A DNA stretch of 64,000 bases from Candidatus Omnitrophota bacterium (GTDB lineage Bacteria > Omnitrophota > Gorgyraeia > B26-G9). Shown in pieces: positions 30,939 to 50,372 of the stretch. The notes under the pieces are model-generated. The model was not told the DNA's origin and ran no database searches. It saw nothing but the letters and a program-made list of their open reading frames with translations. The number at the start of each line of letters is the position of its first letter. Position 1 is the first letter of the stretch. The DNA is taken from contig JAZDHZ010000009.1 of the NCBI GenBank assembly GCA_043805415.1, positions 13,973-77,972 of the forward strand, read 5' to 3'. Position numbers and translations under genes: made by a program.

Positions 30939-30939
30939 T

Positions 30940-32004: not shown

Positions 32005-32006
32005 AC

Positions 32007-32621
32007 ATGGCTATTAAAAAATCAAAAACAAAACAGCTTGGGCAGTTATTGATGGAAAAAGAGATCATCACTCATGGCCAGCTGGATCAGGCGCTTGAAA
32101 TTCAGCTCAAAGATGGCGGTTTGCTGGGGCAGATACTTATTAAACTGGGATTTGTTACCGAACAGCAGATTGAAGACAGTGTTTTTGAGCAAACAACTAA
32201 TTCCCAAAAGCTTGAAAATGTGCTTATGGAAATGGGGATAATCACTCAAGAGCAGATAAATCTAGCTAATGATTTGGAGAAAAAAGAGGGTAGTTTTTTC
32301 GCGCAAAACATTATTAAGCTGGGGTTTCTTGGAGCCGAAGATTTAGTAAGCATTATGGTGACTCAATTCGGATTTCCTTATTTACAGCTAGAAAATTACG
32401 AAATAGATCCTGAAATAGTAAAGCTTGTTCCCCAAAATATTGCCCAGAAATTCAGTTTAATCGCTATTGATAAAATAGGAAATATTTTAACAATAGCCAT
32501 GGCTGACCCTCTAAACGCGAAAGCCCAAGATGAAATAAGAAAAGCTACAGGCTTAAACGTGGAAACTTTTATTTCTACTTATTCTGAAATAGAAGCTGCC
32601 TTGACAAAGAATTACAAATAA
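32007..32621 (+). CDS. stand-alone MshEN-like (putative c-di-GMP-binding) repeats plus T2SSE_N domain, no ATPase domain
   Basis: Two pairs of MshEN-type ~24-aa motifs (LGQLLMEKEIITHGQLDQALEIQ / LLGQILIKLGFVTEQQIEDS; VLMEMGIITQEQINLA / FAQNIIKLGFLGAEDLVSIM), then GspE_N fold (…IAIDKIGNILTIAMADPLN…). Confidence 0.7.
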   Translation: MAIKKSKTKQLGQLLMEKEIITHGQLDQALEIQLKDGGLLGQILIKLGFVTEQQIEDSVFEQTTNSQKLENVLMEMGIITQEQINLANDLEKKEGSFFAQNIIKLGFLGAEDLVSIMVTQFGFPYLQLENYEIDPEIVKLVPQNIAQKFSLIAIDKIGNILTIAMADPLNAKAQDEIRKATGLNVETFISTYSEIEAALTKNYK

Positions 32622-32649
32622 TAGTATAAGCCTTATCGAGGTTTTTGAA

Positions 32650-34362
32650 ATGACTCAGAGTTTAAAAGAAAAAATGATGGATGTTTTGACCCGGTCTAAT
32701 TTCTTAACGAAAGAACAATTAGACGAAGCGATAGAGGCTCAGAAGAAAACTGGCCGGCGTTTAAGTGATGTTTTGACAATGATGGGGTATATAACCCAAA
32801 AAGATTTAGTTATTGTCTTAAGTCAAAGCTTAAATATTCCTCCGATAAACCTGGCGAAAGTTAAGATCAATCCGGAAATAGTAAAAATCATTCCTCGAGA
32901 ATCTGCTGAAAAGTACCAAGCGCTGGTAGTTTCCAAAATTGGTAAAGTTCTTACGGTTGCGATGGTAGACCCGCTTAATGTTTTGGCAATTGATGAACTA
33001 AAAGTATTGACCAACTATGAATTAAAAATTGTTGTTGCCGAGGAAAAAGAACTTAAAGTCGCGATTAATACTTATTATAGTGACTCGACTAATGAGCAAA
33101 TTAGAAATATTATTGATGACGCCAAGGACATGAATCTGGAAATTATTGAGGATGCTGACAGTCAGGAAAAAATATTTAATACTGCTCAGATGCTTAAGGA
33201 TGTTGAAGGCGCGCCGATTGTTAAAATCACCAACATGCTTTTAGCCCAGGGAATAAAAAATCAAGCCAGTGATATTCTGATCGAACCACAGGAAAAAGTT
33301 TTACGTATCCGCTACCGTTTAGATGGGATTTTAAAAGAATTTCCCGCGCCGCCAAAACATATGGAAGAAGCAATTGTTTCACGGATAAAAGTTTTGTCAG
33401 TTCTCAATATCGCTGAACATCGATTGCCTCAGGACGGCCGGTTTAAAATTAAAGTGGCGGATCGGGAAGTGGATTTCCGTGTTTCGATTATGCCGACAAG
33501 TCATGGGGAAAAAGTCGCTTTGCGTGTTTTGGATAAAACCGCGGTGGTTTTGGATCTGGATAAGATGGGCTTTGAACCGGATGGGCTTAAAATTATAAAA
33601 GAACTGGCCATGGAGCCGCATGGGATGATGCTTATATGCGGACCAACCGGAAGCGGTAAATCAACAACGCTTTATTCAATTCTGAAGTATGTTGATGATC
33701 CGGAAAAAAATATTTGCAGCGCGGAAGATCCGGTTGAATACCAGCTTGAAGGAATAAATCAGGTAAATGTTAATCCTGAAGTTGGATTGACCTTCTGCGG
33801 CGCGCTGCGTTCTTTTTTACGTCAAGATCCTGATGTTATCATGGTTGGGGAAATCCGCGATACCGAAACTCTGGATATTTCGATTAAAGCCGCGCTTACC
33901 GGACATCTTGTTTTAAGCACTTTGCACACCACTGAGGCGGCTGGAGCAGTAACCAGAATGGTTAATATGGGGATTGAACCTTTTTTAATTACTTCTTCCT
34001 GTATTATGGTCTGCGCTCAAAGATTAATCCGCAAAATTTGTCCTGATTGCAAAGAAGGCTATCCGATACCTGCTGAAATAAGAAAAAAATTTAAGATCGG
34101 GGAGCAATATAAAACATTATTCAAAGGCAAGGGGTGCAAAACCTGTCAAGGCACTGGATACAAGGGAAGAATCGGTATGTGCGAAGTTCTGGCCTTAACC
34201 CCTGAAATACGTGATTTAATTATGGTTAGAGCGCAGGAAAATTTAATTAAGGCTAAAGCCCGCGAACAGGGAATGGTTACTTTAAGAGAGCATGGAGTAA
34301 TTAAATGTTTAAAAGGGATTACGACATTGGAAGAAGTTACAAGGCTAACTGCTGACGATTAA
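32650..34362 (+). CDS. pilB: type IV pilus assembly (extension) ATPase PilB/GspE family, paralog 1
   Basis: N-terminal MshEN-like motif, T2SSE_N, Walker A GPTGSGKST, tetracysteine CPDC…CKTCQGTG. Confidence 0.9.
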   Translation: MTQSLKEKMMDVLTRSNFLTKEQLDEAIEAQKKTGRRLSDVLTMMGYITQKDLVIVLSQSLNIPPINLAKVKINPEIVKIIPRESAEKYQALVVSKIGKVLTVAMVDPLNVLAIDELKVLTNYELKIVVAEEKELKVAINTYYSDSTNEQIRNIIDDAKDMNLEIIEDADSQEKIFNTAQMLKDVEGAPIVKITNMLLAQGIKNQASDILIEPQEKVLRIRYRLDGILKEFPAPPKHMEEAIVSRIKVLSVLNIAEHRLPQDGRFKIKVADREVDFRVSIMPTSHGEKVALRVLDKTAVVLDLDKMGFEPDGLKIIKELAMEPHGMMLICGPTGSGKSTTLYSILKYVDDPEKNICSAEDPVEYQLEGINQVNVNPEVGLTFCGALRSFLRQDPDVIMVGEIRDTETLDISIKAALTGHLVLSTLHTTEAAGAVTRMVNMGIEPFLITSSCIMVCAQRLIRKICPDCKEGYPIPAEIRKKFKIGEQYKTLFKGKGCKTCQGTGYKGRIGMCEVLALTPEIRDLIMVRAQENLIKAKAREQGMVTLREHGVIKCLKGITTLEEVTRLTADD

Positions 34363-34383
34363 AAATAGTAGAGAGTAGGGATT

Positions 34384-36102
34384 ATGCGTAGGACAAAAAA
34401 ACGTCTTAATGAGCTTTTGCTGGATTACAATTTAATAAGCGAAAAAGATGTTATTAGCGCTTTAGAAATTCAGCGCAAAAGAGGCGGACAATTAGCGACA
34501 ATATTAATCGAGGAAAATTTTGTTAAAGAAGAAGATATTGTAACTTGTTTTTGCCGTTATTTAAATGTTCCTCCGATAAACCTTTCCAAATTCCATGGCG
34601 ATGAAAAAAAGATAAAACTTATTCCCGAACACGTTGCAAGACATTATCGTTTGATCTGCATATCGCAAGTTGGTAATATGCTGACAGTAGCGATGTGCGA
34701 TCCTTTGAACGTGCTGGCGATTGATGATATTAAGGCTTTAACGGGTTATGATATTATTCCAGTGGTATCAGCATTGAGCGGGATTACATTAGCGGTTGAT
34801 CGTTTCTATCATCATAAAGAAGAGGTTAAGACTGAAGAAAGTTTTGATGATTTAGTCAAAGAAATCAATGAGGATGATATTCAGCTGGTTAAAGAAATTG
34901 AACAGATTGATATCGGGGATGTTATCAGATCAAGCAGCGAAGCGCCGATAGTCAAGATGCTTGATGCTTTAATCGCTGAAGCATTGATGAAAAGGGCTTC
35001 GGATATTCATATCGAACCATATGAGACAAAAATAAGAGTACGCTATCGAGTTGACGGAGCATTGCAGGAAGCAGCGATTTTACCGAAAAAGATTCAAAAC
35101 GCGATAGCCGCGAGAATAAAGATTATGTCTAACCTGGATATTACGCAAAGGCTTGTTCCTCAGGATGGAAGATTTAAAGTAAGGCTTGGCGATAAAGAAG
35201 TTGATTTTCGTGTTTCTATTTTACCAATCAGTTTTGGGGAAAAAGTGGTAATGCGTGCTTTGGATAAAGCTAATCTTAGTATCGGTCTTGAGGCTTTAGG
35301 TTTTTTGCCGCAAGCAATGGATGCTTTTGCCTACGCGGTTGCTCAGCCTTATGGAATGATTCTGGTAACTGGTCCGACTGGAAGCGGTAAATCAACCACG
35401 CTGTATTCGGTTTTAAATAAACTTAATGTTCCGGAGCGCAATTTGATTACAATCGAAGATCCGGTTGAATATCAGGTAGATGGAATAACCCAGGTCCAAG
35501 TAAAAGCTGATGTCGGGCTTACTTTCGGTCAGGGACTGCGGGCAATTTTACGGCAAAATCCCGATATTCTTATGGTTGGAGAAATTCGTGATTTTGAAAC
35601 CGGAGATATCGCGGTAAAAGCAGCTTTGACTGGAGCCTTGCTGTTAAGCACATTGCATACTAATGATGCTCCGGGAGCGGTAACCCGGCTTATTGATATG
35701 GGCATAGAGCCGTTTCTTATTGCCAGCAGTGTTATTGCTGTCGCGGCGCAGCGGTTAGCACGTTCAATTTGTCCTAATTGCAAGGAGGCTTATAAAATTC
35801 CCCAATCAGTTTTAGATAGAATGGACCTTGTCCTTGACGCGGAAAAAATTACTGTATACAGAGGTAAGGGTTGTGATAAATGCGGAGGAACCGGGTATAA
35901 AGGACGTTTTGCGATTCTCGAAGTAATGGTGGTAAATGATGCAATCAGAGAAATGATAATGAATCGCAATTCCAGTGATGAAATAAAGCGTTATGCCAGG
36001 AAAAAAAACGGGATGTTGACTTTACGCGATTCCGGCATTCAGAATTTTCTTAAAGGTCAGACAACTCTTGAGGAGGTATTAAGAGTAACCTCCAAAGAAT
36101 AA
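34384..36102 (+). CDS. PilB/GspE-family ATPase, paralog 2
   Basis: Same architecture (MshEN-like N-terminus, GPTGSGKST, CPNC…CDKCGGTG); ~40-45% identical to paralog 1. Confidence 0.9.
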   Translation: MRRTKKRLNELLLDYNLISEKDVISALEIQRKRGGQLATILIEENFVKEEDIVTCFCRYLNVPPINLSKFHGDEKKIKLIPEHVARHYRLICISQVGNMLTVAMCDPLNVLAIDDIKALTGYDIIPVVSALSGITLAVDRFYHHKEEVKTEESFDDLVKEINEDDIQLVKEIEQIDIGDVIRSSSEAPIVKMLDALIAEALMKRASDIHIEPYETKIRVRYRVDGALQEAAILPKKIQNAIAARIKIMSNLDITQRLVPQDGRFKVRLGDKEVDFRVSILPISFGEKVVMRALDKANLSIGLEALGFLPQAMDAFAYAVAQPYGMILVTGPTGSGKSTTLYSVLNKLNVPERNLITIEDPVEYQVDGITQVQVKADVGLTFGQGLRAILRQNPDILMVGEIRDFETGDIAVKAALTGALLLSTLHTNDAPGAVTRLIDMGIEPFLIASSVIAVAAQRLARSICPNCKEAYKIPQSVLDRMDLVLDAEKITVYRGKGCDKCGGTGYKGRFAILEVMVVNDAIREMIMNRNSSDEIKRYARKKNGMLTLRDSGIQNFLKGQTTLEEVLRVTSKE

Positions 36103-36216
36103 TTCTGACTAACAGATTAAATTTTAGTTAAAAAAAATGCTTTTTGTTGTATAATGTTTAGAAGTAAAAATTATAAGTAATATTTAATGGCTGCTTTGAT
36201 TTTATAGGAGGGGAAA

Positions 36217-37422
36217 ATGCCTTTATTTAAATACGTTGCAAAAGATGAAGACGGCAATGCTGTTGATGATCTGATCGAAGCAAAAGATGAAATGGTTGCT
36301 CTTGATATGCTCAGAGTTAAAAATCTGATTATTATCTCAATTACTGAGCAAAAGCAAGCGAAAGCCAAGGCCAAAACTGGGGGTAAGAAAATAAAAGCGG
36401 AAGAGCTGGTAATTTTTTCCCGACAGCTGGCAACAATGGTTAATGCTGGAATCCCGCTTGTGCAAAGTCTTGATATCTTAAGTGAGCAAATGGAGAGCAT
36501 AACATTCAGGCATGTAGTAACAACGATCAGGAGTGATGTAGAATCCGGATCTAGTTTGTCAGCTGCTTTGGAAAAACATCCAAAAGTTTTTACCATGCTG
36601 TATACAAATATGGTGCGAGCCGGAGAAACCAGCGGTATGCTGGATGAAATTCTTGAGAGACTTGCTGGTTATTTAGAAAAGAGCGGTTCATTGGCGCGTA
36701 AAGTAAAATCTGCCATGGTTTATCCGGCAGTTGTTTCGATGATGGCTATTGGAATAACCTTAGTTCTATTATTGAAAGTTATTCCGACTTTTAAGGAGAT
36801 ATTTGCTTCTTTGGGCGGCACGCTTCCTTTGCCTACTCAAATATTGATTAATATTTCAGACACTTTACAGGTATATTTTATCTATGTAGTTGCTGCTTTA
36901 GTGGCAATTGGGTTTGCCGTTGCTAAAGTTATACAAACTCCGCAGGGTAAACTGCGTTTTGATCAGCTAAAGCTTGGTTTGCCGGTATTTGGTCCTTTAC
37001 TTAGAAAAGTTGCTGTTGCTCGATTTTCCCGAACACTTTCAACCTTGATCAGAAGCGGCGTGCCGATTTTAGGCGCCTTAGAAATTGTGGGAAAAACATC
37101 AGGCAATGTTGTGATTGAAGCAGCAGTAGAAAGTTCGCGGGTAGGAATTCGCGAAGGAGAAAGTATTGCCTCTCCACTTGCCAAAAGTAAAGCTTTTCCT
37201 CCAATGGTAACCAGAATGATATCAGTTGGCGAGGAATCTGGAGAGCTTGAAAAAATGCTTACAAAAATTGCTGATTTTTATGAGGATCAGGTAGATGCGG
37301 CAGTAAGCGGCTTAACCAGTTTAATTGAGCCATTGATTATTGCTTTTTTAGGTCTTGTTGTTGGATCTATAGTAATTGCCATGTTTTTGCCGATATTCAA
37401 GATCAGTGAACTTATTGGTTAG
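36217..37422 (+). CDS. pilC: type IV pilus inner-membrane platform protein PilC (GspF family)
   Basis: Two T2SSF repeats, 3 TM helices, 401 aa. Confidence 0.9.
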   Translation: MPLFKYVAKDEDGNAVDDLIEAKDEMVALDMLRVKNLIIISITEQKQAKAKAKTGGKKIKAEELVIFSRQLATMVNAGIPLVQSLDILSEQMESITFRHVVTTIRSDVESGSSLSAALEKHPKVFTMLYTNMVRAGETSGMLDEILERLAGYLEKSGSLARKVKSAMVYPAVVSMMAIGITLVLLLKVIPTFKEIFASLGGTLPLPTQILINISDTLQVYFIYVVAALVAIGFAVAKVIQTPQGKLRFDQLKLGLPVFGPLLRKVAVARFSRTLSTLIRSGVPILGALEIVGKTSGNVVIEAAVESSRVGIREGESIASPLAKSKAFPPMVTRMISVGEESGELEKMLTKIADFYEDQVDAAVSGLTSLIEPLIIAFLGLVVGSIVIAMFLPIFKISELIG

Positions 37423-37465
37423 AGCTATAAATATCTGCAATTATTAAACTTAATCCTAGTAAGCT

Positions 37466-37779
37466 GTTTGCAAAAGCATTGACAAAACTTGGTTGCTCAG
37501 GTATACTTATATAAAAGGTATAAGAAAAGTAAAAGTTTTATTTATTTTAGCCTTTTATCGAAATAGCAAACCCACTGAAAAGTGGGGACGTTTCTCTGAG
37601 ATTACTTACTGGTAAACACAGCAATGAAACACCGAATGATTCTACTTCCTTAAATCACATCAATCGGGGCAAAGCCACGGGTCTAATGGTATTCCTTAAT
37701 AGACGGCCGGGTTACCGAAATAAAAAGGAAAAGCCAATGATAGCCGAGCTACCGAAATAAAAGGTAGGTCGGTTTTTTG
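37466..37779 (+). promoter_or_regulatory. Conserved ~300-nt leader, copy A: sigma-70 promoter (TTGACA-17-TATACT), GEMM/c-di-GMP-I riboswitch-like blocks, terminal intrinsic terminator
   Basis: ~95% identical to 41169-41472. Contains GCAAACC-CACUGAAAAGUG-GGGACG (GNRA-capped hairpin as in GEMM P2) and GCAAAGCCACGGGUC; ends in stem-loop CCGAGCTACC…GGTAGGTCGG plus T6. Confidence 0.5.
37744..37778 (+). terminator. intrinsic terminator (expression platform of leader A)
   Basis: 10-bp stem with 1 mismatch, 9-nt loop, TTTTTT; 5' half repeats the aptamer 3' sequence TACCGAAATAAAAGG, suggesting alternative pairing. Confidence 0.5.
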
Positions 37780-37828
37780 CGTTTTATGTTTAACAATTGT
37801 TCGGTAATTTAGGGAAATTAAAAGTGTT

Positions 37829-38236
37829 ATGAAAAAAAATAAAGCATTTACCTTGATTGAACTAATGATTAGTTCTGTTATTCTTGTAGTATGTTTATTT
37901 TCCCTGATCACAAGTTTTATTATGTGTTATGGATTAAGTGAAACAGCAAGAAACACAACTATCGCTACAGAAGACGGGCGGAGGGTTATTGAGGAAATGC
38001 GCAGTACTAGCGCTGAATCTTTGGTTTTAGTTGTAAATGAAGATTGGAGCGCTTGGGCAGCAGCGCATGGTTGTGTTAATTTAGAGCAAGAGCAAATTCT
38101 GGTTACGTATACAGACCGTAATGGCACTGGTGACCCGCTTGATGATGATCCCTTAGAAGTAAGCGTAAACGTGACTTGGCAAGAGCGGGGCCGTTGGCGG
38201 ATTTTAAATTTCAATGTTCTGCTTACGCCTAGATAG
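37829..38236 (+). CDS. type IV minor pilin/pseudopilin-like protein (module A, gene 1)
   Basis: Class III signal MKKNKA|FTLIELM with Glu+5 and hydrophobic helix; Ala at -1. Confidence 0.75.
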   Translation: MKKNKAFTLIELMISSVILVVCLFSLITSFIMCYGLSETARNTTIATEDGRRVIEEMRSTSAESLVLVVNEDWSAWAAAHGCVNLEQEQILVTYTDRNGTGDPLDDDPLEVSVNVTWQERGRWRILNFNVLLTPR

Positions 38237-38280
38237 AGAACGATTATTTTAATATTTTTTTTAAAACAAGAGCTGAGCCG

Positions 38281-38865
38281 ATGAATAAAAAGAAAATTAA
38301 TAAAATAGCTATTTTCACCCGCGCGCCTGAAAGCCGTGGGTATCAACTTGTCAAAATATGGTTTAATGCGCAAGGTTTTACGCTTATAGAGTTAATGGTT
38401 AGTTGTAGTATTTTAGTTATTCTGGTTTCAAGTGTTTTCGCTATATTAACTTCAGGCAGCCGGTTATGGGCAGTTAGTGTGGCTCAGATCGATATTAGCG
38501 CTTCAGCACGTAATGCTATGGCTAGGGTGTTTGATGATCTGTCTCAGGCAGGCCAGGATACAGTAATTGTAAGTCCTGGACATGACGCGATTACTTTTCA
38601 AACGCCTGATTCTTATTCTGGGGGAATTATATCTTGGGGAAATCAAATCCAATATTCCTTAGGCGGTTTAAATGGACAACAACTTTTACGTACTGATTTG
38701 GTGTCGGGAGATGTCCAGGTATGGGGAAATAATATTACCCTATTGCAGCTTGATCAAACTAAAGATGATACGATAGATATCCAAATCACATTAAGTAAAC
38801 AATCGGCTAAGGGTGATATTTTAACTGTACAGCTTGGATCTCAGGTCCGGCTGCGAAATAAATAG
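38281..38865 (+). CDS. type IV minor pilin-like protein (module A, gene 2; PilW-like)
   Basis: …NAQG|FTLIELMV prepilin motif preceded by an unusually long 35-aa leader (no in-frame alternative start). Confidence 0.7.
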   Translation: MNKKKINKIAIFTRAPESRGYQLVKIWFNAQGFTLIELMVSCSILVILVSSVFAILTSGSRLWAVSVAQIDISASARNAMARVFDDLSQAGQDTVIVSPGHDAITFQTPDSYSGGIISWGNQIQYSLGGLNGQQLLRTDLVSGDVQVWGNNITLLQLDQTKDDTIDIQITLSKQSAKGDILTVQLGSQVRLRNK

Positions 38866-38878
38866 GCGGTGAAAAATA

Positions 38879-40582
38879 ATGAAAAAAAAGGATATTTTTG
38901 CGAAAGAGAAAAAAATGGTCTACAGTAATAAGGGAGTGGCTTTAATTGCCGCGTATTTTACTCTCTTAGTTCTGACGATACTTTTTGTTTCTTTTATGGG
39001 CCGAATTTTTACTGAAAGCCGAGCTGCGGGAAGAAATAAGGAGGTCGTAGAAACATCCTATTTAGCTGAAGCAGGAATTGATCAGGTAACAGTTGATTTG
39101 CATAAATTATTCAAAGCTTATTTTATTGCCCAAGGACGCAGAGAAAGCGCTTTTGTCTGGTTTGACGATTTGCCTAATTCGGCTAAATATGTTTTGCCGG
39201 TTAATGCGGCTTTAGGTCCTGGTACGTATACGGTTCAGATAACTGATGTTAATTCTTCTATCTCTTCTCAGCGGGAGATTACATTTGTTTCCACAGCTCA
39301 AATAGATAATATAATAAAGAAAGTGACAGCAGTGATTCGTTATGAATTAGTTTCTTCAGAAGTATTTAAAAATAGCTACTTTGTTAATAATTTTGGCTGG
39401 TTGTGGGGGAATACCATAACCAGTCAAGGCGATATTCGGGCGAACGGCAATTTTAGCTTTGGGACCTATACTCCAACAATTAACGGAGACATTTATGCCG
39501 CGGTAAATCCTGATATCGGTGCGACCGGGGCAATTATTGGTAATAATGATTATGATAATATTACTGATTACCGCGATGATTCCTCAACCGCGGCGCGGCC
39601 AAGTAATCCAAGTGCTGATCCTCAGGATATTAATTTAGACGGAATTATTGAGCAATTTGCTTACGCGGATGGTTATGATGGTGCTAGTGATAAGATATCT
39701 AACCTTGAAGGCGTGGAAATGCCTTATCTCGGAGATCTGCAGGAATATAAAGATATAGCAATCGCGCAAAATGGAACAATATCACAAGGCGGGGCTGTGA
39801 TTGTGACTAATGTGCTGGATACTACAGGAGCCGACACCATTGTATTAATCGGAACAGCGGCAAATCCAATTCAGCTTAACGGTCCGGTAGTAATTGCCGG
39901 TGATGTTCTGATAAAAGGGGTCGTTACCGGACAAGGTACTATTTATTCCGGAAGAAATATTCATATCGGGGGTAATGTAACTTATAAGAATGCGCCTTCT
40001 TGGGTGAAACCTGATACTGACTCCGCGACAACTGATACCCAGGCTGATGCCTGCGATTTTTTAGGCTTGGCGGCAAAGGGAAATATTGTTGTCGGTGATT
40101 ATACCAGCGGTACTTTTAACCTGATAGAAAATTACTTAAAACCGCCTTTTACTCAGCCCTATAAGGTTGACCCCACAGATGCGGGCATTGGCTATGTTTC
40201 CTATACATCAGGGGGGGACTCTTATTTTAATGGTGACTATACCGCTAATGACGGAGGCAGGAAATTTGATTCAGCGGGTAATGACGCGGGGGCACGGAAA
40301 TTTTATGAATCTTCATTAAAAGACAATGAGTTTCGGTCATTTTGTGATAGCGGATTGTTTACGAGAATTGACGCGATATGCTATACAAACCATGCTTTAA
40401 CCGGAAGAATAGGGCAAATGGTTATAAATGGAATAATTGTTTCTCGCGATGAGGCAACTTCGTATTCTGGACATCTGACTTTGAATTATGATATTCGGGC
40501 AAAATCAGACAGATTGGGGAAAAAGATGTATTTGCCGAGAAGTTTGGCTTTGCCGCATACGGTGTATCTGAAAAGAGATTGA
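38879..40582 (+). CDS. large PilX_N-domain minor pilin / putative tip-associated protein (module A, gene 3)
   Basis: N-terminal GVALIAAYFTLLVLTILFVSFMG resembles the PilX N-terminal domain; 567 aa Gly/Asp/Thr-rich; alternative start ATG 38915. Confidence 0.65.
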   Translation: MKKKDIFAKEKKMVYSNKGVALIAAYFTLLVLTILFVSFMGRIFTESRAAGRNKEVVETSYLAEAGIDQVTVDLHKLFKAYFIAQGRRESAFVWFDDLPNSAKYVLPVNAALGPGTYTVQITDVNSSISSQREITFVSTAQIDNIIKKVTAVIRYELVSSEVFKNSYFVNNFGWLWGNTITSQGDIRANGNFSFGTYTPTINGDIYAAVNPDIGATGAIIGNNDYDNITDYRDDSSTAARPSNPSADPQDINLDGIIEQFAYADGYDGASDKISNLEGVEMPYLGDLQEYKDIAIAQNGTISQGGAVIVTNVLDTTGADTIVLIGTAANPIQLNGPVVIAGDVLIKGVVTGQGTIYSGRNIHIGGNVTYKNAPSWVKPDTDSATTDTQADACDFLGLAAKGNIVVGDYTSGTFNLIENYLKPPFTQPYKVDPTDAGIGYVSYTSGGDSYFNGDYTANDGGRKFDSAGNDAGARKFYESSLKDNEFRSFCDSGLFTRIDAICYTNHALTGRIGQMVINGIIVSRDEATSYSGHLTLNYDIRAKSDRLGKKMYLPRSLALPHTVYLKRD

Positions 40583-40598
40583 AATTACTAAGAGAAAG

Positions 40599-41021
40599 GT
40601 GTTGAAAATGAAGGGTGTAAAGTTGTGTATGACAATTATTATACTGCTTTCCCAGACGAATGGAGTGTATGGTTTTTTTCAGGATGATGGAACTGATCCT
40701 CAGCCAGTAATACAAGAAATGGTTGCGCAGCGCCAAGCTATAGAAAAAAGATATATAGCTTATGAAAAACAAAAAGCATTGGAAAAAGAAAAAACAAAAG
40801 AACGCTTATCCTGGACAAAAATCAGGCTTGAGCAAATGCGGGATGCTCAAGGCAGAAAAAATATAAACACCCGATCCAATATGAATATAGAGTCGAAGAA
40901 TGGAAGCCGGAAAAACACAGCAGCAGTTCAATCATTTAAAATTGCTCAAATTATCCTATTAATCGCGGGTTTATTTGGCTGCGTGTTTTGGATATATAAA
41001 ATCAACAAAAAAAAATTGTGA
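40599..41021 (+). CDS. hypothetical signal-peptide protein with C-terminal TM anchor (module A, gene 4)
   Basis: 140 aa; signal peptide, charged coiled region, C-terminal hydrophobic helix. Confidence 0.4.
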   Translation: MLKMKGVKLCMTIIILLSQTNGVYGFFQDDGTDPQPVIQEMVAQRQAIEKRYIAYEKQKALEKEKTKERLSWTKIRLEQMRDAQGRKNINTRSNMNIESKNGSRKNTAAVQSFKIAQIILLIAGLFGCVFWIYKINKKKL

Positions 41022-41168
41022 TCAGATATATAATACTGAATAAAGTTGTTTGAATATTCTTGATTTGCGCGTAATAACTTCGGGAATAGCCTGAGTAATT
41101 TTAAAGAGATGCTGAAAAATATGGAGCATATAAGTATATATAATAATTAAAGTTAATAATAATAAAAT

Positions 41169-41472
41169 GTTTGCAAAAGTATTGACAAGGTTTGGTAGCT
41201 AATGTATACTTATATTATAGGTAAAAGTTTTATTTATTTTACCCTTTTATCGATAATGGCAAACCCACTGAAAAGTGGGGGCGTTTCTCTGAGATTACTT
41301 ACTGGTAAACACAGCAATGAAACACCGAATGATTTTACTTCCTTGAATCGCATCAATCGGGGCAAAGCCACGGGTCTAATGGTGTTCCTTAATAGACGGC
41401 CGGGTTACCGAAATAAAAAGGAAAAGCCAATGATAGCCGAGCTACCGAAATAAAAGGTAGGTCGGTTTTTTG
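41169..41472 (+). promoter_or_regulatory. Conserved ~300-nt leader, copy B (promoter TTGACA-17-TATACT, GEMM-like blocks, terminator)
   Basis: Near-identical to copy A; substitutions cluster in a few short stretches; the 83-aa ORF called across it is probably spurious. Confidence 0.5.
41437..41471 (+). terminator. intrinsic terminator (expression platform of leader B)
   Basis: Same stem-loop plus T6 as copy A. Confidence 0.5.
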
Positions 41473-41499
41473 TCTAAAAAGGGGGAATGGGGAAAGCTT

Positions 41500-41955
41500 A
41501 TGCAAAGAAGAAAAGGTTTTACTCTGGTTGAAATACTGGTTTCAACTGCTATTATGGCGATTGCAATTACATCTACTTTGCAGATTTTAATGTATCTGTT
41601 ACAGATGAATGAAGCAAATCAGGTATCAGTTGCTTGCATGAATAGAGCTCAGGGGATCATGGATGAGATTAAAAGAGTTAATTATGATGATGTGATTACG
41701 CTTTATAATGGAAATCAATTTACTGTTGCTGAGCTGACAAGCAGGAATGTCCGCCATAGCGGAGTAATTTACGCGAATGAAATAGAAGCGGACTTTCTTA
41801 TAGATATAAAAGTAGTTATCAGCTGGGGAAATAGAAATAGAATAATCGGTGAGGATACTAATTTAAATGGGGTTTTAGACATTGGGGAAGATTTAAATGG
41901 AAATGGGCAGATTGATTCACCGGTTATGATTGAGGGCACAATCTTAAATCGGTAG
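41500..41955 (+). CDS. type IV minor pilin-like protein (module B, gene 1)
   Basis: MQRRKG|FTLVEIL prepilin motif. Homologous to 37829 (shared V.V..W.R..RI C-terminal pattern). Start moved to ATG 41500 because 41470 lies inside the terminator T-tract; GGGGGAATGGGGAAAG RBS. Confidence 0.75.
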   Translation: MQRRKGFTLVEILVSTAIMAIAITSTLQILMYLLQMNEANQVSVACMNRAQGIMDEIKRVNYDDVITLYNGNQFTVAELTSRNVRHSGVIYANEIEADFLIDIKVVISWGNRNRIIGEDTNLNGVLDIGEDLNGNGQIDSPVMIEGTILNR

Positions 41956-41974
41956 TCTTAGGGGAGACGCGAAT

Positions 41975-42625
41975 ATGATGAATAGTAAAAAAGCTTATAC
42001 TTTAGCAGAGCTTTTGGTTTCACTTGCAATTTTTACTGTAGTAATCGGTTCTTTGATGAGTATTTTAATTTCGCAAAATGCTTTTTTTAGCCGCGCCTCA
42101 GCCGCGGTAGATGTGGGGGGTAAAGCGCGCAGAGTAATGACGCTTATGGTTAAAGAACTTCGTTTGGCTAAGCAAGAGGTTGTTAATGTTTATGACCGGC
42201 CTTTAGACCAACCGGGAGTGAGTCTTGATCATACTAACGGCAAGAGCATTGTGTTTCAATTCCCTGTGGATTGGGATGGCGATGGAGATAAATTCGATGA
42301 GTGGGGGAGAATAGAATGGGGTTGTGAAGGCGGACTTGACTGGTCAATTGAATATTATTATGATAGTGTCAATCAAAGAGTAATGCGGCGTGTATGGGAT
42401 GCCGCAAATACCGCGCAGTCTGAAACTGTGGTTGCTGAAGATATCAGTAATTTTTTAATCCAAGGGTTCCAGTATGATTCATCTTTGCAGACATATATAT
42501 TGCACTCAGCTTGTGAAATTATTGAAATAAATATTACCGCGCAAAGAGATAGTATTTCAGGCAGAACATTAGATTCACCCTTGACTTATAGTTTAATTAA
42601 TCGGGTTACCTGGCGGAATAATTAA
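41975..42625 (+). CDS. type IV minor pilin-like protein (module B, gene 2; PilW-like)
   Basis: MMNSKKA|YTLAELLV motif (Ala -1, Tyr +1, Glu +5); homologous to 38281. Confidence 0.7.
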   Translation: MMNSKKAYTLAELLVSLAIFTVVIGSLMSILISQNAFFSRASAAVDVGGKARRVMTLMVKELRLAKQEVVNVYDRPLDQPGVSLDHTNGKSIVFQFPVDWDGDGDKFDEWGRIEWGCEGGLDWSIEYYYDSVNQRVMRRVWDAANTAQSETVVAEDISNFLIQGFQYDSSLQTYILHSACEIIEINITAQRDSISGRTLDSPLTYSLINRVTWRNN

Positions 42626-42650
42626 TTTTTTTTAAATAAGGAGAAACGCA

Positions 42651-45425
42651 ATGAGAATGATTACTAATAGAAAAGGAACGATTCTTGTAGCAACCTATAT
42701 GGTATTATGCGTGATCATTGTTGTTGCCAGTTCATTTTTCTCCATGGTGCTGACTGACAATAAAACAGTGGCAAGAGACAATGATGGAGCGCGAGCTTTA
42801 TCCAATGCCGAACGGGGAATTGCCTATGCTTATTTTGAAGCGAATAAAATGGGCTGGGATTGGTACACTCATGAATGGAATGGATCTAAAAAAAAATTAA
42901 TCCCTATTCCTCCAGCTCAAAGGGTGCTCACTAGGGCTGATTTGAGTTTTAACAGTGATAAATTTGTTGAACATAATTCAGGCAGTTTTATGCTCAAGGC
43001 TTATCCTGATGCTACACGTGAAAATGATACGGTTGTTGTTTCCATGGGGATTTGCGGAAAAGAGCGAAGAGTGCTGATGTATTATTTAACTCGCCGGGGA
43101 ATCTATGATTTTTTTATATACACTCCGTATGATTTAGATCTTTACGATGCCGTAGGCCATCATCCGCTGTTAAATGGCGGAGGCATACATTCAAATGGAG
43201 ATATTCATATTGATAGTTATATGCGGCTGGAAGATATTTCAGAATTAAGTGCTGGAGCAAGCGGAAATATTTACTATGAAGGAAGTCAATATATACCACC
43301 TTATTATGCTGATCGTCTGGATAGTGTGATGGATGGGAAGTCGCCCATCACAAGGCTGGATAAAATGGCTGATGTATTTCGTGATGATACGATAAATCAA
43401 GCCGGGCCATTTGGATATTATAATGCTTATGGTCAATGGCAATGGGATAGCGGAGCAACTTATTTTGTCTATACAGATAATGGCTTGAGAAATTCTTTTC
43501 AAAGTACAGAAGGGCATTTCGCGGGTTCTGTATTAGATATTTATAATGTGAATCCTGGGCAGACCAGCGGGGGTGCTAAGAATGATAGTGGCGGTATTTT
43601 AAATTCTCAAAATGCCTGGATAAAACCTTATATGCTGGATTCTGAGGGCAATCAGATTGATAAGACTTGGGTAGAGATTCCCGCGGAAATGGACACTGAA
43701 TGGGGTTGGGATAAATATGGCTGGAACAACTATGGGACTGTTGCGGGTGAGCAGCCAGTTAGTTTTTATACATATAAAGATGATGGAACTCAGGTTGATG
43801 TAGCCAATACTTATTGGGAAATAAATGCCAGCAATAAAGTGGAAATGCTTGATCCGCCAATCGGCGGGACTCCGGAAGAGTGGGCGGTTTTTAACGCGGC
43901 GCACCCAGAGGCTAAACAGTATTGGGATATGTACGCTACTCCTGAGTTTTGGAAAGCAAATTATAATAATGCTTATTATGAATATTTAGCAGATATGATT
44001 AACCCCGAAATGCTAGACGGAACTTATGGAGATGAGCGTTTAAATAGTGATATTTTGATGGTTAAGCATACAAATTCGGAAAAACAACCAGATGATTGGA
44101 AGGCTTTTCTTTCGTCTTCGGGTTTGGATGGGATAGTGCGTGATGGAAATACTGGAGGAGAGTATTTAGAACCGCCTGATTTTGATACCACATATTCACG
44201 CTTAGCGGAAAGAGATGGGCTATATATAGATTTAGATTCAAGTTTTGATGGAAATTTTGATGATTATGATGAATGGCAGGAAGTGCTGGAAAAAAGCATT
44301 GATAACGCGGTAAACTCGCTTAATCAGGGAACCGCTACGCATGATGTAGCTAAAAAAGTTAAATTTATCAACACCTTTACAGGCGAGTGGAATGTTGTTT
44401 TAGAAATAGATTTTAAGAACATGCAAACACAAAGCAGATATCCCTCCAATGGTATTTTATACACAAAAGTTCCGATTAGAATTACTAATGCCGCTGAGCT
44501 TGCCCGGGCAAAACCAAAATACGGGTTTACTATTTTAGGAGAAGAAAATATTTATCTGCAAGGAGATTATAATACTGATCAATGGGTAACCAGCGCGGTT
44601 ATTTCCAAAAAACGCATATTTACTTTGTCAGATGATTTTAATGATCCGCAGGTTAAACCAGCTTTAGAACATTATCCGGATTACCCCTATCTTTATGTTA
44701 AAGATGATGGATCTGGAAATTATGCTGAGGTGCCGAAAACAACTTCCGGCGGACAGTGGGTAATTATTGATTACTTGGACGATGATGGATTTGTTGATAA
44801 ACTAGATTATTATGCTGGAATTAATGATACAAACGAAGCTAGTTTGCGGTCAATAATCTTAGCAAAGGAAAATGACTATCGCAGTGTTTTTAATAAGCCT
44901 GATCCCAGCGGCAGTGTTGAGGATACCTGGACATGGTCTGGTACTGGAGAAAGCTATACTTCAGGGATGATGCCCAATACGGTAAGTCAGGATCATACTT
45001 ATAACGCGCTTATGTCAACTAATCGCTGGTTAGACACTTATCAGAGTAATAAAGGCGATATTCTAGAGAACTGGTCTTATCTGGTAGGGGCTAGTACTGT
45101 GAATAAACGTCGTAATTTAAACGGAGCATTTTTTGTTCTGGAAAACTCAAATGTCGGTGGATTTACTGCTGCTAATAATGAGTTTGTTGATTATCGAAAT
45201 GAGTCAGGTTTAGGTTATGATCAGCGTGGCCGTTCTGCTGGCACAGGAGATAATTTTTCATATAACAGAGGTTCTTTTTTGCGGACTTATGACGCGCAAG
45301 AAGCCATGTCCTATGATGAGCAGTTTAAAACAGCAACCAGGGCTCCTTCGGATGTGTTTTTTGGCGGAGCTGAATCTTTATGGTCTGAGACAACGGAGGC
45401 TTTCTTTTATCAGTTGAATTTCTAG
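42651..45425 (+). CDS. giant PilX_N-domain protein (924 aa), putative pilus-tip adhesin (module B, gene 3)
   Basis: N-terminal KGTILVATYMVLCVIIVVASSFFSMVL PilX_N-like helix; remainder Asp/Gly/Tyr/Trp-rich with no recognisable domain. Confidence 0.65.
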   Translation: MRMITNRKGTILVATYMVLCVIIVVASSFFSMVLTDNKTVARDNDGARALSNAERGIAYAYFEANKMGWDWYTHEWNGSKKKLIPIPPAQRVLTRADLSFNSDKFVEHNSGSFMLKAYPDATRENDTVVVSMGICGKERRVLMYYLTRRGIYDFFIYTPYDLDLYDAVGHHPLLNGGGIHSNGDIHIDSYMRLEDISELSAGASGNIYYEGSQYIPPYYADRLDSVMDGKSPITRLDKMADVFRDDTINQAGPFGYYNAYGQWQWDSGATYFVYTDNGLRNSFQSTEGHFAGSVLDIYNVNPGQTSGGAKNDSGGILNSQNAWIKPYMLDSEGNQIDKTWVEIPAEMDTEWGWDKYGWNNYGTVAGEQPVSFYTYKDDGTQVDVANTYWEINASNKVEMLDPPIGGTPEEWAVFNAAHPEAKQYWDMYATPEFWKANYNNAYYEYLADMINPEMLDGTYGDERLNSDILMVKHTNSEKQPDDWKAFLSSSGLDGIVRDGNTGGEYLEPPDFDTTYSRLAERDGLYIDLDSSFDGNFDDYDEWQEVLEKSIDNAVNSLNQGTATHDVAKKVKFINTFTGEWNVVLEIDFKNMQTQSRYPSNGILYTKVPIRITNAAELARAKPKYGFTILGEENIYLQGDYNTDQWVTSAVISKKRIFTLSDDFNDPQVKPALEHYPDYPYLYVKDDGSGNYAEVPKTTSGGQWVIIDYLDDDGFVDKLDYYAGINDTNEASLRSIILAKENDYRSVFNKPDPSGSVEDTWTWSGTGESYTSGMMPNTVSQDHTYNALMSTNRWLDTYQSNKGDILENWSYLVGASTVNKRRNLNGAFFVLENSNVGGFTAANNEFVDYRNESGLGYDQRGRSAGTGDNFSYNRGSFLRTYDAQEAMSYDEQFKTATRAPSDVFFGGAESLWSETTEAFFYQLNF

Positions 45426-45462
45426 TTTTAAAATAAATCGATATTAAATCATTGGGGGAAAT

Positions 45463-45876
45463 ATGGACCATAAAGTAAAAATAACATTAGCCACAACCGG
45501 GGTCTTGTTGTTATTGATTATTGCTACCGGACTATACTCGACGTTTAATCCTAAATCAGTCAAAACAGAGCTGCTTAATGAAATAAGCAAGACAGCGCCG
45601 GTTTATAAACAAGGATCTAAAGTAGGGTTAGGCTCAAAAGCGAAAACTAATGTTAAAGAAAACTCTTATTATTTTCTTGATAAAAAAGTTGAAAGAGCGC
45701 AAGTTGATCCCCATGACAACTTAAACGCTAACAATGATGAACTTGATGATTTTTTTGTATCGGATATTTCTGAGCCGATTGATATGGTGGCAAATTTTGA
45801 TGATGATTATGTTCAAGCGCCTGAAATTGATATATCGATGAATGAGGCTGAACTTGATCATCCGATGGAAAATTAA
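45463..45876 (+). CDS. hypothetical membrane-anchored acidic protein (module B, gene 4)
   Basis: 137 aa, N-terminal TM helix, strongly acidic C-terminal half. Confidence 0.4.
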   Translation: MDHKVKITLATTGVLLLLIIATGLYSTFNPKSVKTELLNEISKTAPVYKQGSKVGLGSKAKTNVKENSYYFLDKKVERAQVDPHDNLNANNDELDDFFVSDISEPIDMVANFDDDYVQAPEIDISMNEAELDHPMEN

Positions 45877-45941: not shown

Positions 45942-47234
45942 TTGACTTTTTGTTCTTCCTCTTTTATAATGGGGTCAATGCAAGTAGACAGAAATTCAAT
46001 CTATTCAGTAATTTTTTTCCGATTTGCCATTGTTACAGTGATTTTCATTGTCAATACTACGCTTTTTGGCTTGGGGCGTATCCCGGTTTATTTTATAATT
46101 ACAGCGGTTTATGGTTTGACTCTAGTTTATTCCTTGCTGAATTTAGCAAATATATTTAATCCTAAATTTTTGTATGTACAGATTTTTCTGGATTTAGTTT
46201 TAGAAACATTGCTTGTGCATTATACCGGGGGGATTAATTCAGTACTTAGTATTTTGTTTCCGCTTTCCAGTATAGCCGCGAGTATTATAATTTCACCGGC
46301 AGCGGCAATAGTTATTGCTCTTTTAGGCAGTATTATGTATGCTGGAGTAGTGACTATGGAGCAATTGAATGTTTTTGCTTTGCCGTCGATCGGGATAAAT
46401 GAGCTGGCAATGCCTGACGCGTATGTTTTCTCCTTATTGTATTTTCGGGTCACGGTGTTTATTGTGATTGGTTTTTTGAGTTCATATATTGCCGATCAGC
46501 TGAGAAAGCAAAATAAAGTTGTTTTGTCCTTACAGGAAAAATTGCGGCGAGAAGACAGGTTATCGGCGATTGGTAAGCTGGCGGCAAGTACTGCTCACGA
46601 GATACGCAATCCCTTGGCATCGATATCCGGCTGTGTGGAAGCATTAAAAGATTCAGTTGCTTTGCAAGATAAAGATAAAAAATTATTCAATCTTATTTTA
46701 AAGGAAACCGCGCGTTTAAATGATATTATTAATGGTTTGCTTGAATATGTTAAACCCAGGCAGCTAAAGCTGGAAAAAATATCAATTGATGAGCTGGTTG
46801 ATGAAGTTGTTTTTTTGCTGAAAAGCAGCAATAAATTTAAAGATGACATAGTAATTAAAAAAGAAAATTCTCTTCCGGAGATAAAAATCAGTTGCGATCC
46901 GCAGCAGATCAAACAGGTGTTATTCAATTTACTGATAAACGCGGTGGAGGCAATTGAAAAACAAGGGAAAATTATTATCCGGCAAAAAGCTAGTGAAGAT
47001 ATTGAAGGGATTGAGCTGGAGATATCGGATAATGGGATTGGAATGTCTAAAGAGCAATTAGGCACTCTTTTTGAACCATTCTCAAGTCATAAAGATAAAG
47101 GGGTCGGCTTGGGGCTGCCGATAGTAAGTACAATTATAAAAGAACACGGCGGCAGTATTAATATCCAAAGCAAGTTAGGTAAGGGCAGCACATTCCGGAT
47201 CTTCTTACCAGCTAAAATAAAAATAAAGGAATAG
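45942..47234 (+). CDS. pilS: PilS-like polytopic sensor histidine kinase
   Basis: ~6 N-terminal TM helices, HisKA (STAHEIRNPLASI), HATPase N/G1/G2 boxes; directly upstream of a sigma-54 activator. Confidence 0.75.
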   Translation: MTFCSSSFIMGSMQVDRNSIYSVIFFRFAIVTVIFIVNTTLFGLGRIPVYFIITAVYGLTLVYSLLNLANIFNPKFLYVQIFLDLVLETLLVHYTGGINSVLSILFPLSSIAASIIISPAAAIVIALLGSIMYAGVVTMEQLNVFALPSIGINELAMPDAYVFSLLYFRVTVFIVIGFLSSYIADQLRKQNKVVLSLQEKLRREDRLSAIGKLAASTAHEIRNPLASISGCVEALKDSVALQDKDKKLFNLILKETARLNDIINGLLEYVKPRQLKLEKISIDELVDEVVFLLKSSNKFKDDIVIKKENSLPEIKISCDPQQIKQVLFNLLINAVEAIEKQGKIIIRQKASEDIEGIELEISDNGIGMSKEQLGTLFEPFSSHKDKGVGLGLPIVSTIIKEHGGSINIQSKLGKGSTFRIFLPAKIKIKE

Positions 47235-47235
47235 T

Positions 47236-49092: not shown

Positions 49093-49156
49093 CTAATAAC
49101 ATTGGTCTTAACTATTTGATAATTTGTAATTGGTAAACAATGAAAGGGGTGTTAGT

Positions 49157-49660: not shown

Positions 49661-49681
49661 TTGATTAAACTGAAAACTAAA

Positions 49682-49718
49682 AGAGGGATTGTATAGAAAT
49701 ATATGATCCCTCTTTTTT
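49682..49718 (+). terminator. intrinsic terminator after pilA1
   Basis: AGAGGGAT…ATCCCTCT 8-bp stem followed by TTTTTT. Confidence 0.75.
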
Positions 49719-49816
49719 ATTTCAGGTTATTGTTGAGCTGAAATATGTTTTTTGTTATAATAAATCATGGGATTTAGTTTGGGGTAATTAAGTTTTAATT
49801 AGCGAAAGGTAATAAT

Positions 49817-50320: not shown

Positions 50321-50372
50321 GGCGGATTGTGCTAAATGTATATAATAAAATCGTAAAAGAAAGAATTATGGG

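Follow-up and report, generated by a model that had tools for sequence, protein, structure and literature searches.

Duplicated candidate c-di-GMP-I riboswitches with a two-hairpin expansion of P2 and a decoy-strand terminator precede minor-pilin modules in an Omnitrophota bacterium

Introduction

Control of type IV pilus genes by cyclic-dinucleotide riboswitches has well-described precedents: pilM, pilO, pilQ and pulF were already included in the founding GEMM gene list (PMC1950547), and the pilus cases studied comprise C. difficile pilA1 (PMC6366702) and Geobacter pilM (PMC9262584). Here we analyze two nearly identical leaders located 5' of two minor-pilin operons of Candidatus Omnitrophota bacterium, in a 64-kb stretch of contig JAZDHZ010000009.1 (this whole stretch of 64,000 nucleotides, nt, is referred to as the window, and all coordinates are given within it). 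Each leader is, quite probably, one transcriptional riboswitch of the c-di-GMP-I class (c-di-GMP, cyclic diguanosine monophosphate; the class is also known as GEMM-I), equipped with a two-hairpin module in its P2 helix, a terminator built on a decoy strand, and a proposed OFF mechanism similar to that of the C. difficile leader Cd1. An initial annotation of this DNA had presented cyclic-dinucleotide riboswitch control of pilus genes as unusual, which was an overstatement in view of what is already known (PMC1950547, PMC6366702, PMC9262584). As judged from sequence comparison, what appears to be new is the two-hairpin expansion of P2 together with the decoy-strand platform, both conserved within a clade of Omnitrophota, the association with pili being by itself ordinary. 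No description of either feature was found in the literature searched, which is absence of evidence only.

The reference point for the class is the Vc2 aptamer, where G20 recognizes the ligand's G-alpha and C92 pairs with G-beta (PMC6140456). The leaders described here share with RF01051/Vc2 the P1/P2/P3 architecture, a P2 of the form GCAAAC...GAAA...GRC with a 3-nt internal loop, the invariant AAA linker, the P3 core AGCCNCGGGUC...GCCGGGUU, the ACCGAA segment with the C92 equivalent and, in copy 2, G20; they also share with the class a position in the 5' leader of pilus genes. Unlike the Vc2-type aptamers, the expanded Omnitrophota leaders carry a two-hairpin module of 39-116 nt (79 nt here) in the 3' strand of P2, beside the binding pocket.

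With respect to regulatory design, two GEMM switches have had their co-transcriptional folding dissected: Cd1 (the C. difficile flgB leader) is an OFF switch in which the terminator coexists with the folded aptamer, the antiterminator is transient and the terminator state is the stable one, whereas in the ON design of pilM the aptamer and the terminator are mutually exclusive (PMC9262584). The likeness of the window leaders to Cd1 consists in an intrinsic terminator able to coexist with the folded aptamer. The difference is in the antiterminator, which in Cd1 is composed of the aptamer-closing strand A and a switching strand T, while the Omnitrophota counterpart of T (the decoy strand, further referred to as strand B) mimics strand A instead of complementing it. 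The GEMM-Ib aptamers (Geobacter Gs1761 and the G. metallireducens pilM leader) share the fold and, with copy 1, the A at position 20 (PMC9262584, PMC6140456), and the genes under the pilM leader are likewise for type IV pilus assembly (PMC9262584). However, pilM works as an ON switch, its terminator overlaps the aptamer, and it has no P2 insert; copy 2, in contrast to GEMM-Ib, has G20, as do the remaining Omnitrophota orthologues read at this site, and no Hypr-GGDEF gene was found next to the locus. Finally, the c-di-GMP-II riboswitch Cdi-2-4 of C. difficile pilA1 likewise combines a cyclic-di-GMP aptamer with a terminator 5' of a pilin gene (PMC6366702), but it belongs to another aptamer class, is of the ON type and has the major pilin under its control, whereas the window leaders, with no RF01786 match, precede minor-pilin modules.

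Materials and Methods

Genes were read within the window. Leaders of other Omnitrophota were collected from the DNA 3' of pilC at orthologous loci and by pattern scans, yielding 16 distinct leaders including both window copies (individual loci are designated by L numbers where they have to be told apart). A P3-only pattern scan of genome contigs provided at least three further Omnitrophota loci and also supplied the background set, i.e., approximately 114 GEMM-I aptamers of other phyla with the same P3 core among the matches listed, which is a sample and not an exhaustive collection. A pattern scan of metagenomes contributed five stretches.

Aptamer Identity and Anatomy

The Rfam scan of the whole window returned a single riboswitch match, c-di-GMP-I (RF01051) at 41248-41412 in copy 2, with 38.8 bits, above the gathering threshold of 35 (E 4.7e-4 over the whole window and 3.3e-6 locally); the alignment skips 84 nt inside P2. 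Copy 1 falls below gathering and is matched, under permissive filters, in two pieces (22.2 bits for the P2 hairpin and 29.4 bits for a P3-centered segment), which counts against our reading of this leader; it was assigned to c-di-GMP-I because it is 97% identical to copy 2. No match to c-di-GMP-II (RF01786) was obtained at gathering across the window or at E<=10 in either leader, and no other Rfam family matched either leader or, at E<=10, the inside of the insert. Thus, of the two Rfam families proposed for comparison in the initial annotation, only c-di-GMP-I was recovered, and only for copy 2 at the gathering level.

The leaders extend over 37466-37783 (copy 1) and 41169-41483 (copy 2). Their alignment agrees with the identity of about 95% reported earlier: they are ~95-97% identical, with one 11-nt indel just 3' of the promoter, and the segment 37529-37779 shows ~97% identity to copy 2, with only eight differences, all of them at positions unpaired in the model. 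All leader features and both operons described below are on the + strand. In copy 1, the P1 5' strand (CCUUUUAUCG, 37551-37560), for which we propose a toggling role between the P1 3' strand and the decoy tail, is followed by an A at the position equivalent to Vc2 G20 (37565) and by a canonical P2 at 37566-37589 (basal G21-C22, AAA, CCCACU-GAAA-AGUGGG, GAC), which corresponds to the 22.2-bit local match (model positions 12-35). Next come the 79-nt insert at 37590-37668 (hairpin A, 37590-37630; hairpin B, 37632-37667), J2/3 and P3 at 37669-37715 (G45-C46 at 37669-37670, AAA with A47 at 37671-37673, P3 at 37673-37713 and A-C92 at 37714-37715), and the P1 3' strand, or A tail (CGAAAUAAAAAGG, 37716-37728). 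The same order is found in copy 2, with the P1 5' strand (CCUUUUAUCG) at 41243-41252, G20 and the canonical P2 at 41258-41282 (G20 at 41258, P2 at 41259-41282), the 79-nt insert at 41283-41361 (hairpin A, 41283-41323; hairpin B, 41325-41360), and G45-C46, AAA, P3, C92 and the P1 3' strand at 41362-41421 (P3 at 41366-41406, C92 at 41408, P1 3' strand at 41409-41421). The P2 internal loop of copy 2 reads GGC in place of GAC, as in most of the lineage.

The two GEMM-like blocks recognized at the outset, GCAAACCCACUGAAAAGUGGGGAC at 37566-37589 and GCAAAGCCACGGGUC from 37669, are indeed present, and the separation of about 75 nt ascribed to them is the 79-nt insert. They had been interpreted as either a variant GEMM or a degenerate tandem arrangement, and it is the first of these that holds: there is a single variant aptamer, in which P1, P2, the AAA linker and P3 each occur once. 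We rejected a double aptamer, whether tandem or degenerate, since neither the AAA linker nor P3 nor the ACCGAA(C92)-P1 closure is present a second time and since uninterrupted orthologues exist. We also rejected hairpin B as a second P2, as its weak c-di-GMP-I-GGC alignment depends on the GAAAC stem of hairpin A, found only in the window lineage, and a c-di-GMP-I-GGC identity of the leaders: for L005 and L132 this model is the winner within the clan, yet all sequences read GCAAAG and have, therefore, the canonical A47 and not G47.

Each element of the aptamer can be followed across the homologues. P2 has the form GCAAA-CCCACU-GAAA-AGUGGG-GAC/GGC with a 3-nt internal loop and a GAAA loop that is invariant (13/13), and its 6-bp stem is 100% paired with four compensatory pairs. 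The linker, described as "virtually always AAA" in GEMM (PMC1950547), is present as GC-AAA-GCC at 37669-37676 and 41362-41369 and is invariant in all homologues. P3, with its receptor-like internal loop and the ACCGA (C92) that follows it, aligns to the Rfam consensus with high posterior probability, and the P3 core pattern is identical in >100 aptamers of other phyla (among the matches listed). P1 pairs CCUUUUAU with AUAAAAAGG with one bulge, and this complementarity is kept with different sequences in L005, L130, L132 and L134. One departure from the family is that P2 is not continuous, being interrupted by the 79-nt insert in both window copies; since the continuity of P2 is a typical and not a ligand-binding feature, the element is classified as a structural variant. 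Overall, both leaders are, on comparative evidence, genuine single c-di-GMP-I aptamers with an expanded P2 and a predicted capacity to bind the ligand, and their core appears to be under selection, as indicated by the invariant motifs, the covariation of P1 and P2 and the restriction of differences between the copies to unpaired positions.

The same leader recurs in at least 12 further contigs of Omnitrophota, which, next to the Rfam score of copy 2, speaks against a chance resemblance, and the orthologous leaders between pilC and the minor pilins match the c-di-GMP-I model in every related locus. Two orthologues, L005 and L132 (PilC 82%), are uninterrupted canonical aptamers with 67.7 and 74.6 bits (best clan model), while the orthologues with an insert score 36.3-50.3 bits, the insert thus costing about 30 bits of covariance-model score. 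This fall from 68-75 to 36-50 bits, as well as the position of copy 1 under gathering, would also be compatible with interrupted aptamers that are decaying relics, the leaders acting only as constitutive attenuators or as structure of the 5' untranslated region. We consider such decay very unlikely: none of the ligand- and tertiary-contact elements (GAAA loop, AAA linker, P3 core and ACCGAA) varies between lineages with wholly different inserts, P2 and P1 covary, the eight differences between the window copies avoid all stems, and the insert, far from being random sequence, invariably forms an orderly pair of hairpins flush with the junction. With insert variants scoring at or below Rfam gathering, and copy 1 missed at that threshold, riboswitch counts in candidate phyla are probably underestimates.

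The Two-Hairpin Insert in P2

As established by alignment and motif parsing, eleven leaders outside the window carry an insert at one fixed point, after the "GRC" of P2 and before the basal G45-C46. The lengths of these inserts are 39, 47, 51, 57, 71, 71, 73, 75, 78, 81 and 116 nt, next to 79 nt in both window copies and 0 in L005 and L132. When folded alone, 13/13 inserts form exactly two hairpins that are flush with both ends (+/-1) and abut each other (0-1 nt). A flush two-hairpin fold of this kind is obtained in 1-11 of 200 dinucleotide shuffles per insert, and the z-scores of the minimum free energy (MFE) range from -0.8 to -7.1. The stems themselves are unrelated between lineages, both in hairpin A (GUUUC/GAAAC, GUUCUGA/UCAGAAC, UCCCGCC/GGCGGGA, AUUCCGUC/GACGGGAU and CCCUCGCA/UGCGAGGG) and in hairpin B (CCGA/UCGG, UCCUGC/GCAGGA, UCCGGC/GCCGGA, UCCAAA/UUUGGA and CGGCCG/CGGCCG), and no conserved loop sequence is found among the inserts of the 13 leaders. 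In an anchor-defined alignment, all eight outer pairs of hairpins A and B have changed on both sides in a compensatory manner, and the covariation score is 0.956 versus 0.331 in shuffles and <=0.305 in slid registers; the partner positions were taken from the MFE folds, so that their 100% pairing is partly circular, and the shuffle test provides the independent evidence.

In another reading of the leaders, the conserved feature would be an 83-aa leader-peptide open reading frame (ORF; 41202-41453) and not RNA structure. An ATG-initiated ORF of this length is present in copy 2, but its ATG is created by G20 itself (AAUGGC versus AAUAGC in copy 1), and this frame, in copy 1, lacks a start and has three stops upstream. 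Furthermore, the insert lengths of the homologues (0-116 nt) are not multiples of three and the stem substitutions are compensatory, which makes a conserved peptide exceedingly improbable, and this candidate was rejected as incompatible with the length variation. The comparison of homologues suggested in the initial annotation was therefore decided in favor of the RNA: its structure covaries, and the 83-aa ORF is not conserved.

In the folding model, the basal pairs, the upper P2 and hairpins A and B, joined by almost no linker nucleotides, turn P2 into a four-way junction. The occurrence of two orthologues without the module and the fast turnover of its sequence together suggest a peripheral element outside the ligand pocket; the insert is dispensable for the family fold, being absent from these two, and most likely represents a peripheral structural or folding element. 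The GEMM-I fold would then tolerate, and the lineage maintain, a large helical module one base pair from the ligand pocket, providing a natural experiment for aptamer folding and engineering. A more elaborate role, as an accessory domain (for binding of a second factor, for altered affinity or specificity, or for a folding delay) which, together with the decoy platform, would amount to a switching logic undescribed for riboswitches, appears distinctly unlikely to us. If it were true, the insertion found at another position of P2 in L136 (see below) would point to convergent selection for a four-way-junction P2.

Outside Omnitrophota, the two-hairpin P2 insert was found in none of the ~114 GEMM-I aptamers of other phyla among the matches listed. 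The spacing from GCAAA to GCAAAGC in this sample is 24-25 nt in 108 of ~114-115 aptamers, with one more at 28 nt, and the remaining ones are off the canonical spacing only through a differently spelled P2 motif.

Several individual leaders illustrate the variability of this region. Two leaders of L006 (11318-11560 and 16350-16620) have identical P2, P3 and platform, whereas their inserts are a 71-nt two-hairpin module and a 116-nt module with a branched second domain, respectively; the same flanks around wholly different inserts imply that the insert turns over faster than its flanks. In L110 (5480-5620, minus strand of the locus; a GC-richer member of Omnitrophota), a 51-nt two-hairpin insert occupies the same P2 site next to a terminator platform of the non-decoy type, which suggests that the insert is older or more widespread than the decoy platform. 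In L136 (11195-11470; PilC 65%), a more distant Omnitrophota locus, a c-di-GMP-I aptamer with 39.1 bits lies 5' of a pilin gene and pilMNOPQ; this single example seems to carry a different two-hairpin insertion, in the 5' strand of the upper P2 (CCA, two hairpins, CUC-GAAA-GAGUGG). Its basal pair is a compensatory U22-A45, and its terminator is unrelated. In the window itself, the loop of hairpin B in copy 1 (37646-37653) contains UUCCUUAA, the same sequence as the distal P3 3' strand (37692-37699), which is complementary to AAGGAA in the P1-3'/linker region (37725-37730). A long-range pairing of this loop with the AAGGAA linker was considered and set aside: UUCCUU is kept in copy 2, but the complementarity of UUCCUUAA with AAGGAA is not conserved outside the genome of the window.

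Termination and Direction of Switching

Both leaders end in an intrinsic terminator, as noted in the initial annotation, whose description of a stem-loop with a T6 tract 5' of the prepilin genes is borne out by the sequence and by MFE folds. In copy 1 (37744-37778), the stem CCGAGCUACC / loop GAAAUAAAA / GGUAGGUCGG is followed by U6 at 37773-37778, and in copy 2 the same CCGAGCUACC / GAAAUAAAA / GGUAGGUCGG at 41437-41465 is followed by U6 at 41466-41471. A consensus terminator scan with a loop limit of 8 nt reported neither of them, their loop being 9 nt, and they were established by folding.

The 5' arm of the terminator is the core of the decoy strand B, a 31-nt segment (CCAAUGAUAGCCGAGCUACCGAAAUAAAAGG, 37734-37764 in copy 1, with its counterpart at 41427-41457 in copy 2) that repeats the P3 3' strand, ACCGAA and the P1 3' strand of the aptamer. 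The resemblance of the terminator arm (GCCGGGUUACCGAAAUAAAAAGG) to the aptamer 3' sequence (GCCGAGCUACCGAAAUAAAAGG), which had been pointed out earlier, amounts to two mismatches in a 14-nt core starting 23 nt downstream. This core repeat (two mismatches, 21-23 nt downstream) is found in 20/21 Omnitrophota instances and in 0/114 aptamers of other phyla among the matches listed. Moreover, the core of B is invariant across the orthologues, while the 3' arm of the terminator varies, covaries and tolerates mismatches, a pattern that fits pairing of B with two partners. The tail of B, AUAAAAGG, is the partner of the P1 5' strand in the proposed antiterminator.

Folding shows that both partnerships are energetically feasible. 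The MFE structure of full-length copy 1 contains P1, P2, P3 and the terminator together (-62.1 kcal/mol); the terminator does not overlap the aptamer, and the two can coexist. In the copy 1 transcript ending 5' of the terminator 3' arm, the 5' strands of P1 and P3 are paired with B and strand A is in a hairpin of its own, at -55.3 kcal/mol compared to -44.7 kcal/mol with B blocked. The switch of the P1 partner is also predicted by folding for copy 2, L001, L127, L005, L006a, L006b, L064 and L107. The duplex of the P1 5' strand with the B tail (P1*), at -8 to -13 kcal/mol, is kept in every lineage in spite of sequence change (L134 with the compensatory GUCC/GGAC, L132 and L006), and it is stronger than the bulged P1 in 10/13 leaders.

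Since the aptamer and the terminator can coexist, as in Cd1, we infer an OFF switch. The antiterminator has to differ from that of Cd1: strands A and B are same-sense near-repeats (two mismatches in 14), and the only possible antiterminator is, therefore, one in which the 5' strands of the aptamer pair with B instead of A. With c-di-GMP bound, the 5' strands would be locked on A and B would be free to pair with the 3' arm of the terminator, so that transcription would stop at the U6 tract, 5' of the minor-pilin genes. With no ligand, the weak, bulged P1 would open, and its 5' strand (probably that of P3 as well) would capture the B tail, a better match, once this has been transcribed, B being transiently withheld from the terminator and the polymerase reading through. 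As an alternative to the antiterminator design in common use, the decoy-strand platform would be compact and easy to test. By analogy with Cd1, the OFF direction is somewhat favored, and the kinetic character of the antiterminator is likewise a proposal drawn from the folds.

Within the locus, MshEN-type pilus ATPases are encoded near the leaders, and c-di-GMP usually activates ATPases of this type. Besides the sub-gathering score of copy 1 and the partial circularity of the insert pairing, several points weigh against the proposed OFF riboswitch. The main tension is that repression of minor pilins by c-di-GMP is not the obvious expectation, given the MshEN proteins and the C. difficile precedent, where high c-di-GMP turns pilA1 ON (PMC6366702). 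Thermodynamically, the terminator state is the most stable one whether or not ligand is present, and OFF regulation would then need a kinetic window. The P1* fold is not the MFE structure in L004 or L130, and P1 is predicted to be stronger than P1* in L064, L131 and L005. In addition, with the insert just one base pair from the ligand pocket (G45-C46/A47), binding could in principle be altered or abolished.

The same considerations bear on the main rival of the OFF switch, an ON switch in which c-di-GMP would stabilize an alternative aptamer built with B, sequestering the 5' arm of the terminator and allowing transcription at high c-di-GMP. Strand B does copy every element of the 3' half of the aptamer, including an ACCGAA/C92 context of its own and the P1 3' strand; the folds of the 5' strands with B are the MFE structures before the terminator 3' arm is made; and an ON response would agree with the behavior of pilus genes in C. 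difficile (PMC6366702) and with the typical activation of the MshEN ATPases of the locus by c-di-GMP. On the other hand, strand A is transcribed first, is closer to the family consensus and has a fully paired P3, whereas a strictly conserved G-to-A change in B produces a C.A mismatch in the alternative P3 and a better pairing with the terminator 3' arm. A ligand that locks both folds could not discriminate between the A- and B-built aptamers, and the aptamer formed with A coexists with the terminator, as in the OFF-type Cd1 (PMC9262584). On balance, we regard an ON switch as unlikely.

Ligand Specificity

In copy 2, the equivalents of the ligand-contacting positions are G41258 (G20), A41364 (A47, which we take to be a ligand-contacting nucleotide of the Vc2 structure) and C41408 (C92). 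Position 20, the unpaired base 5' of the paired GC, is A37565 in copy 1 and G in copy 2 and in 15/15 other Omnitrophota copies read there; in the 114 background aptamers, it is G in 105, A in 8 and C in 1 (among the matches listed). Thus, of the two ligands between which the initial annotation had left the choice, c-di-GMP is the one suggested by G20 in copy 2 and 15 other copies, and 3'3'-cGAMP (cyclic GMP-AMP) comes into question for copy 1, the only one with the GEMM-Ib signature A20. In Vc2, the G20A replacement results in binding of both c-di-GMP and cGAMP, and natural A20 aptamers are cGAMP-selective or bispecific, although they still bind c-di-GMP through an adenine that is protonated (PMC6140456). 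Copy 1 may, by its sequence, have a relaxed ligand specificity.

A stronger version of this proposal is that copy 1 has become a 3'3'-cGAMP-sensing or bispecific riboswitch of the GEMM-Ib type, the two minor-pilin modules then answering to different cyclic dinucleotides. In its favor, A37565 versus G41258 is among only eight differences between the leaders, all other Omnitrophota copies read at position 20 have G, a natural A occurs there in 8/114 sampled GEMM-I aptamers (among the matches listed), and both G20A Vc2 and natural A20 aptamers provide biochemical precedents (PMC6140456). Against it, A20 aptamers retain c-di-GMP binding through the protonated adenine (PMC6140456), the only cyclase near the locus, within the 64-kb window, is a canonical GGDEF protein and not of the Hypr type (no genome-wide search for a cGAMP synthase was made), and a single base of a metagenome-assembled genome may be a neutral or an assembly variant. 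Taken together, a switch of copy 1 to cGAMP seems quite unlikely. Irrespective of the outcome, the G20/A20 pair on freshly homogenized leaders represents a ready natural comparison for ligand specificity.

Genomic Context

Each leader starts with a sigma-70-type promoter, TTGACA-17-TATACT (37479-37507 in copy 1 and 41182-41210 in copy 2), with 11/12 matches to the consensus; consistent with the near-consensus promoters reported earlier, these are the top two promoter matches within 37300-41600, and the hexamers are kept in most orthologous leaders. Near the transcription start, the 11-nt indel of copy 1 (37513-37526) gives rise to a third AUAAAAGG element, whose sequence is the complement of the P1 5' strand; in the MFE fold of copy 1, this extra element sequesters that strand.

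The order of genes around the leaders is response regulator, PilT-like ATPase, stand-alone MshEN-domain protein, two PilB/GspE-type MshEN ATPases and PilC, followed by leader 1 with module 1, leader 2 with module 2, PilS and PilR, three more prepilins and a GGDEF protein. The first part, at 30528-37422, comprises the receiver protein, the PilT-like ATPase, the stand-alone MshEN protein (32007-32621), the two MshEN PilB/GspE ATPases and the PilC-like protein gene (36217-37422) directly 5' of leader 1; in total, three MshEN-domain proteins are encoded at the locus. The window PilC is 100% identical to a protein of a Candidatus Omnitrophota metagenome-assembled genome, and a search for homologous proteins returned many orthologues of it, with 63-94% identity. 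PilS/PilR, of the sigma-54 type, are encoded at 45942-48588, 5' of three further prepilin genes at 49130-50849, and the GGDEF protein (51204-52475), with canonical GHQEGD, GGEEF and RxxD I-site motifs, closes the locus. Its specificity position is occupied by Asp (GHQEGD), and it is predicted to be a synthase of the c-di-GMP type, not of the Hypr type. The locus is therefore rich in c-di-GMP components, and the three MshEN-domain proteins and the cyclase favor c-di-GMP as the presumed ligand. The presumed riboswitches would extend the c-di-GMP-I class to uncultured, ultra-small-celled Omnitrophota, in which the minor-pilin modules of a c-di-GMP-centered type IV pilus locus would be gated by them.

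Operon 1, behind the copy 1 leader (37829-41021), encodes prepilin-type proteins of 135 and 194 aa followed by proteins of 567 and 140 aa, and operon 2, behind the copy 2 leader (41500-45876), encodes prepilins of 151 and 216 aa followed by proteins of 924 and 137 aa. The first prepilin of operon 2 has 151 or 161 aa depending on the start; its true start is plausibly the ATG at 41500, reading MQRRKGFTLVEIL, and not the mechanically listed TTG at 41470. The distance from the end of the terminator to the start of the prepilin is 51 nt for copy 1 and 29 nt for copy 2. The gene order is shared by the relatives, most of which have a single leader and a single module, and the module syntenic with theirs is operon 2. 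Modules 1 and 2 have the same four-gene layout, but their proteins are only 17-30% identical, while the leaders are ~97% identical, which suggests that the leader has been recently copied or homogenized (by transplantation or gene conversion) onto a divergent module. In L134, two consecutive modules are found behind a single leader. The window also contains two tRNA genes at 631-713 and 4353-4425 (minus strand; Rfam 59 and 65 bits), which are unrelated to the riboswitches.

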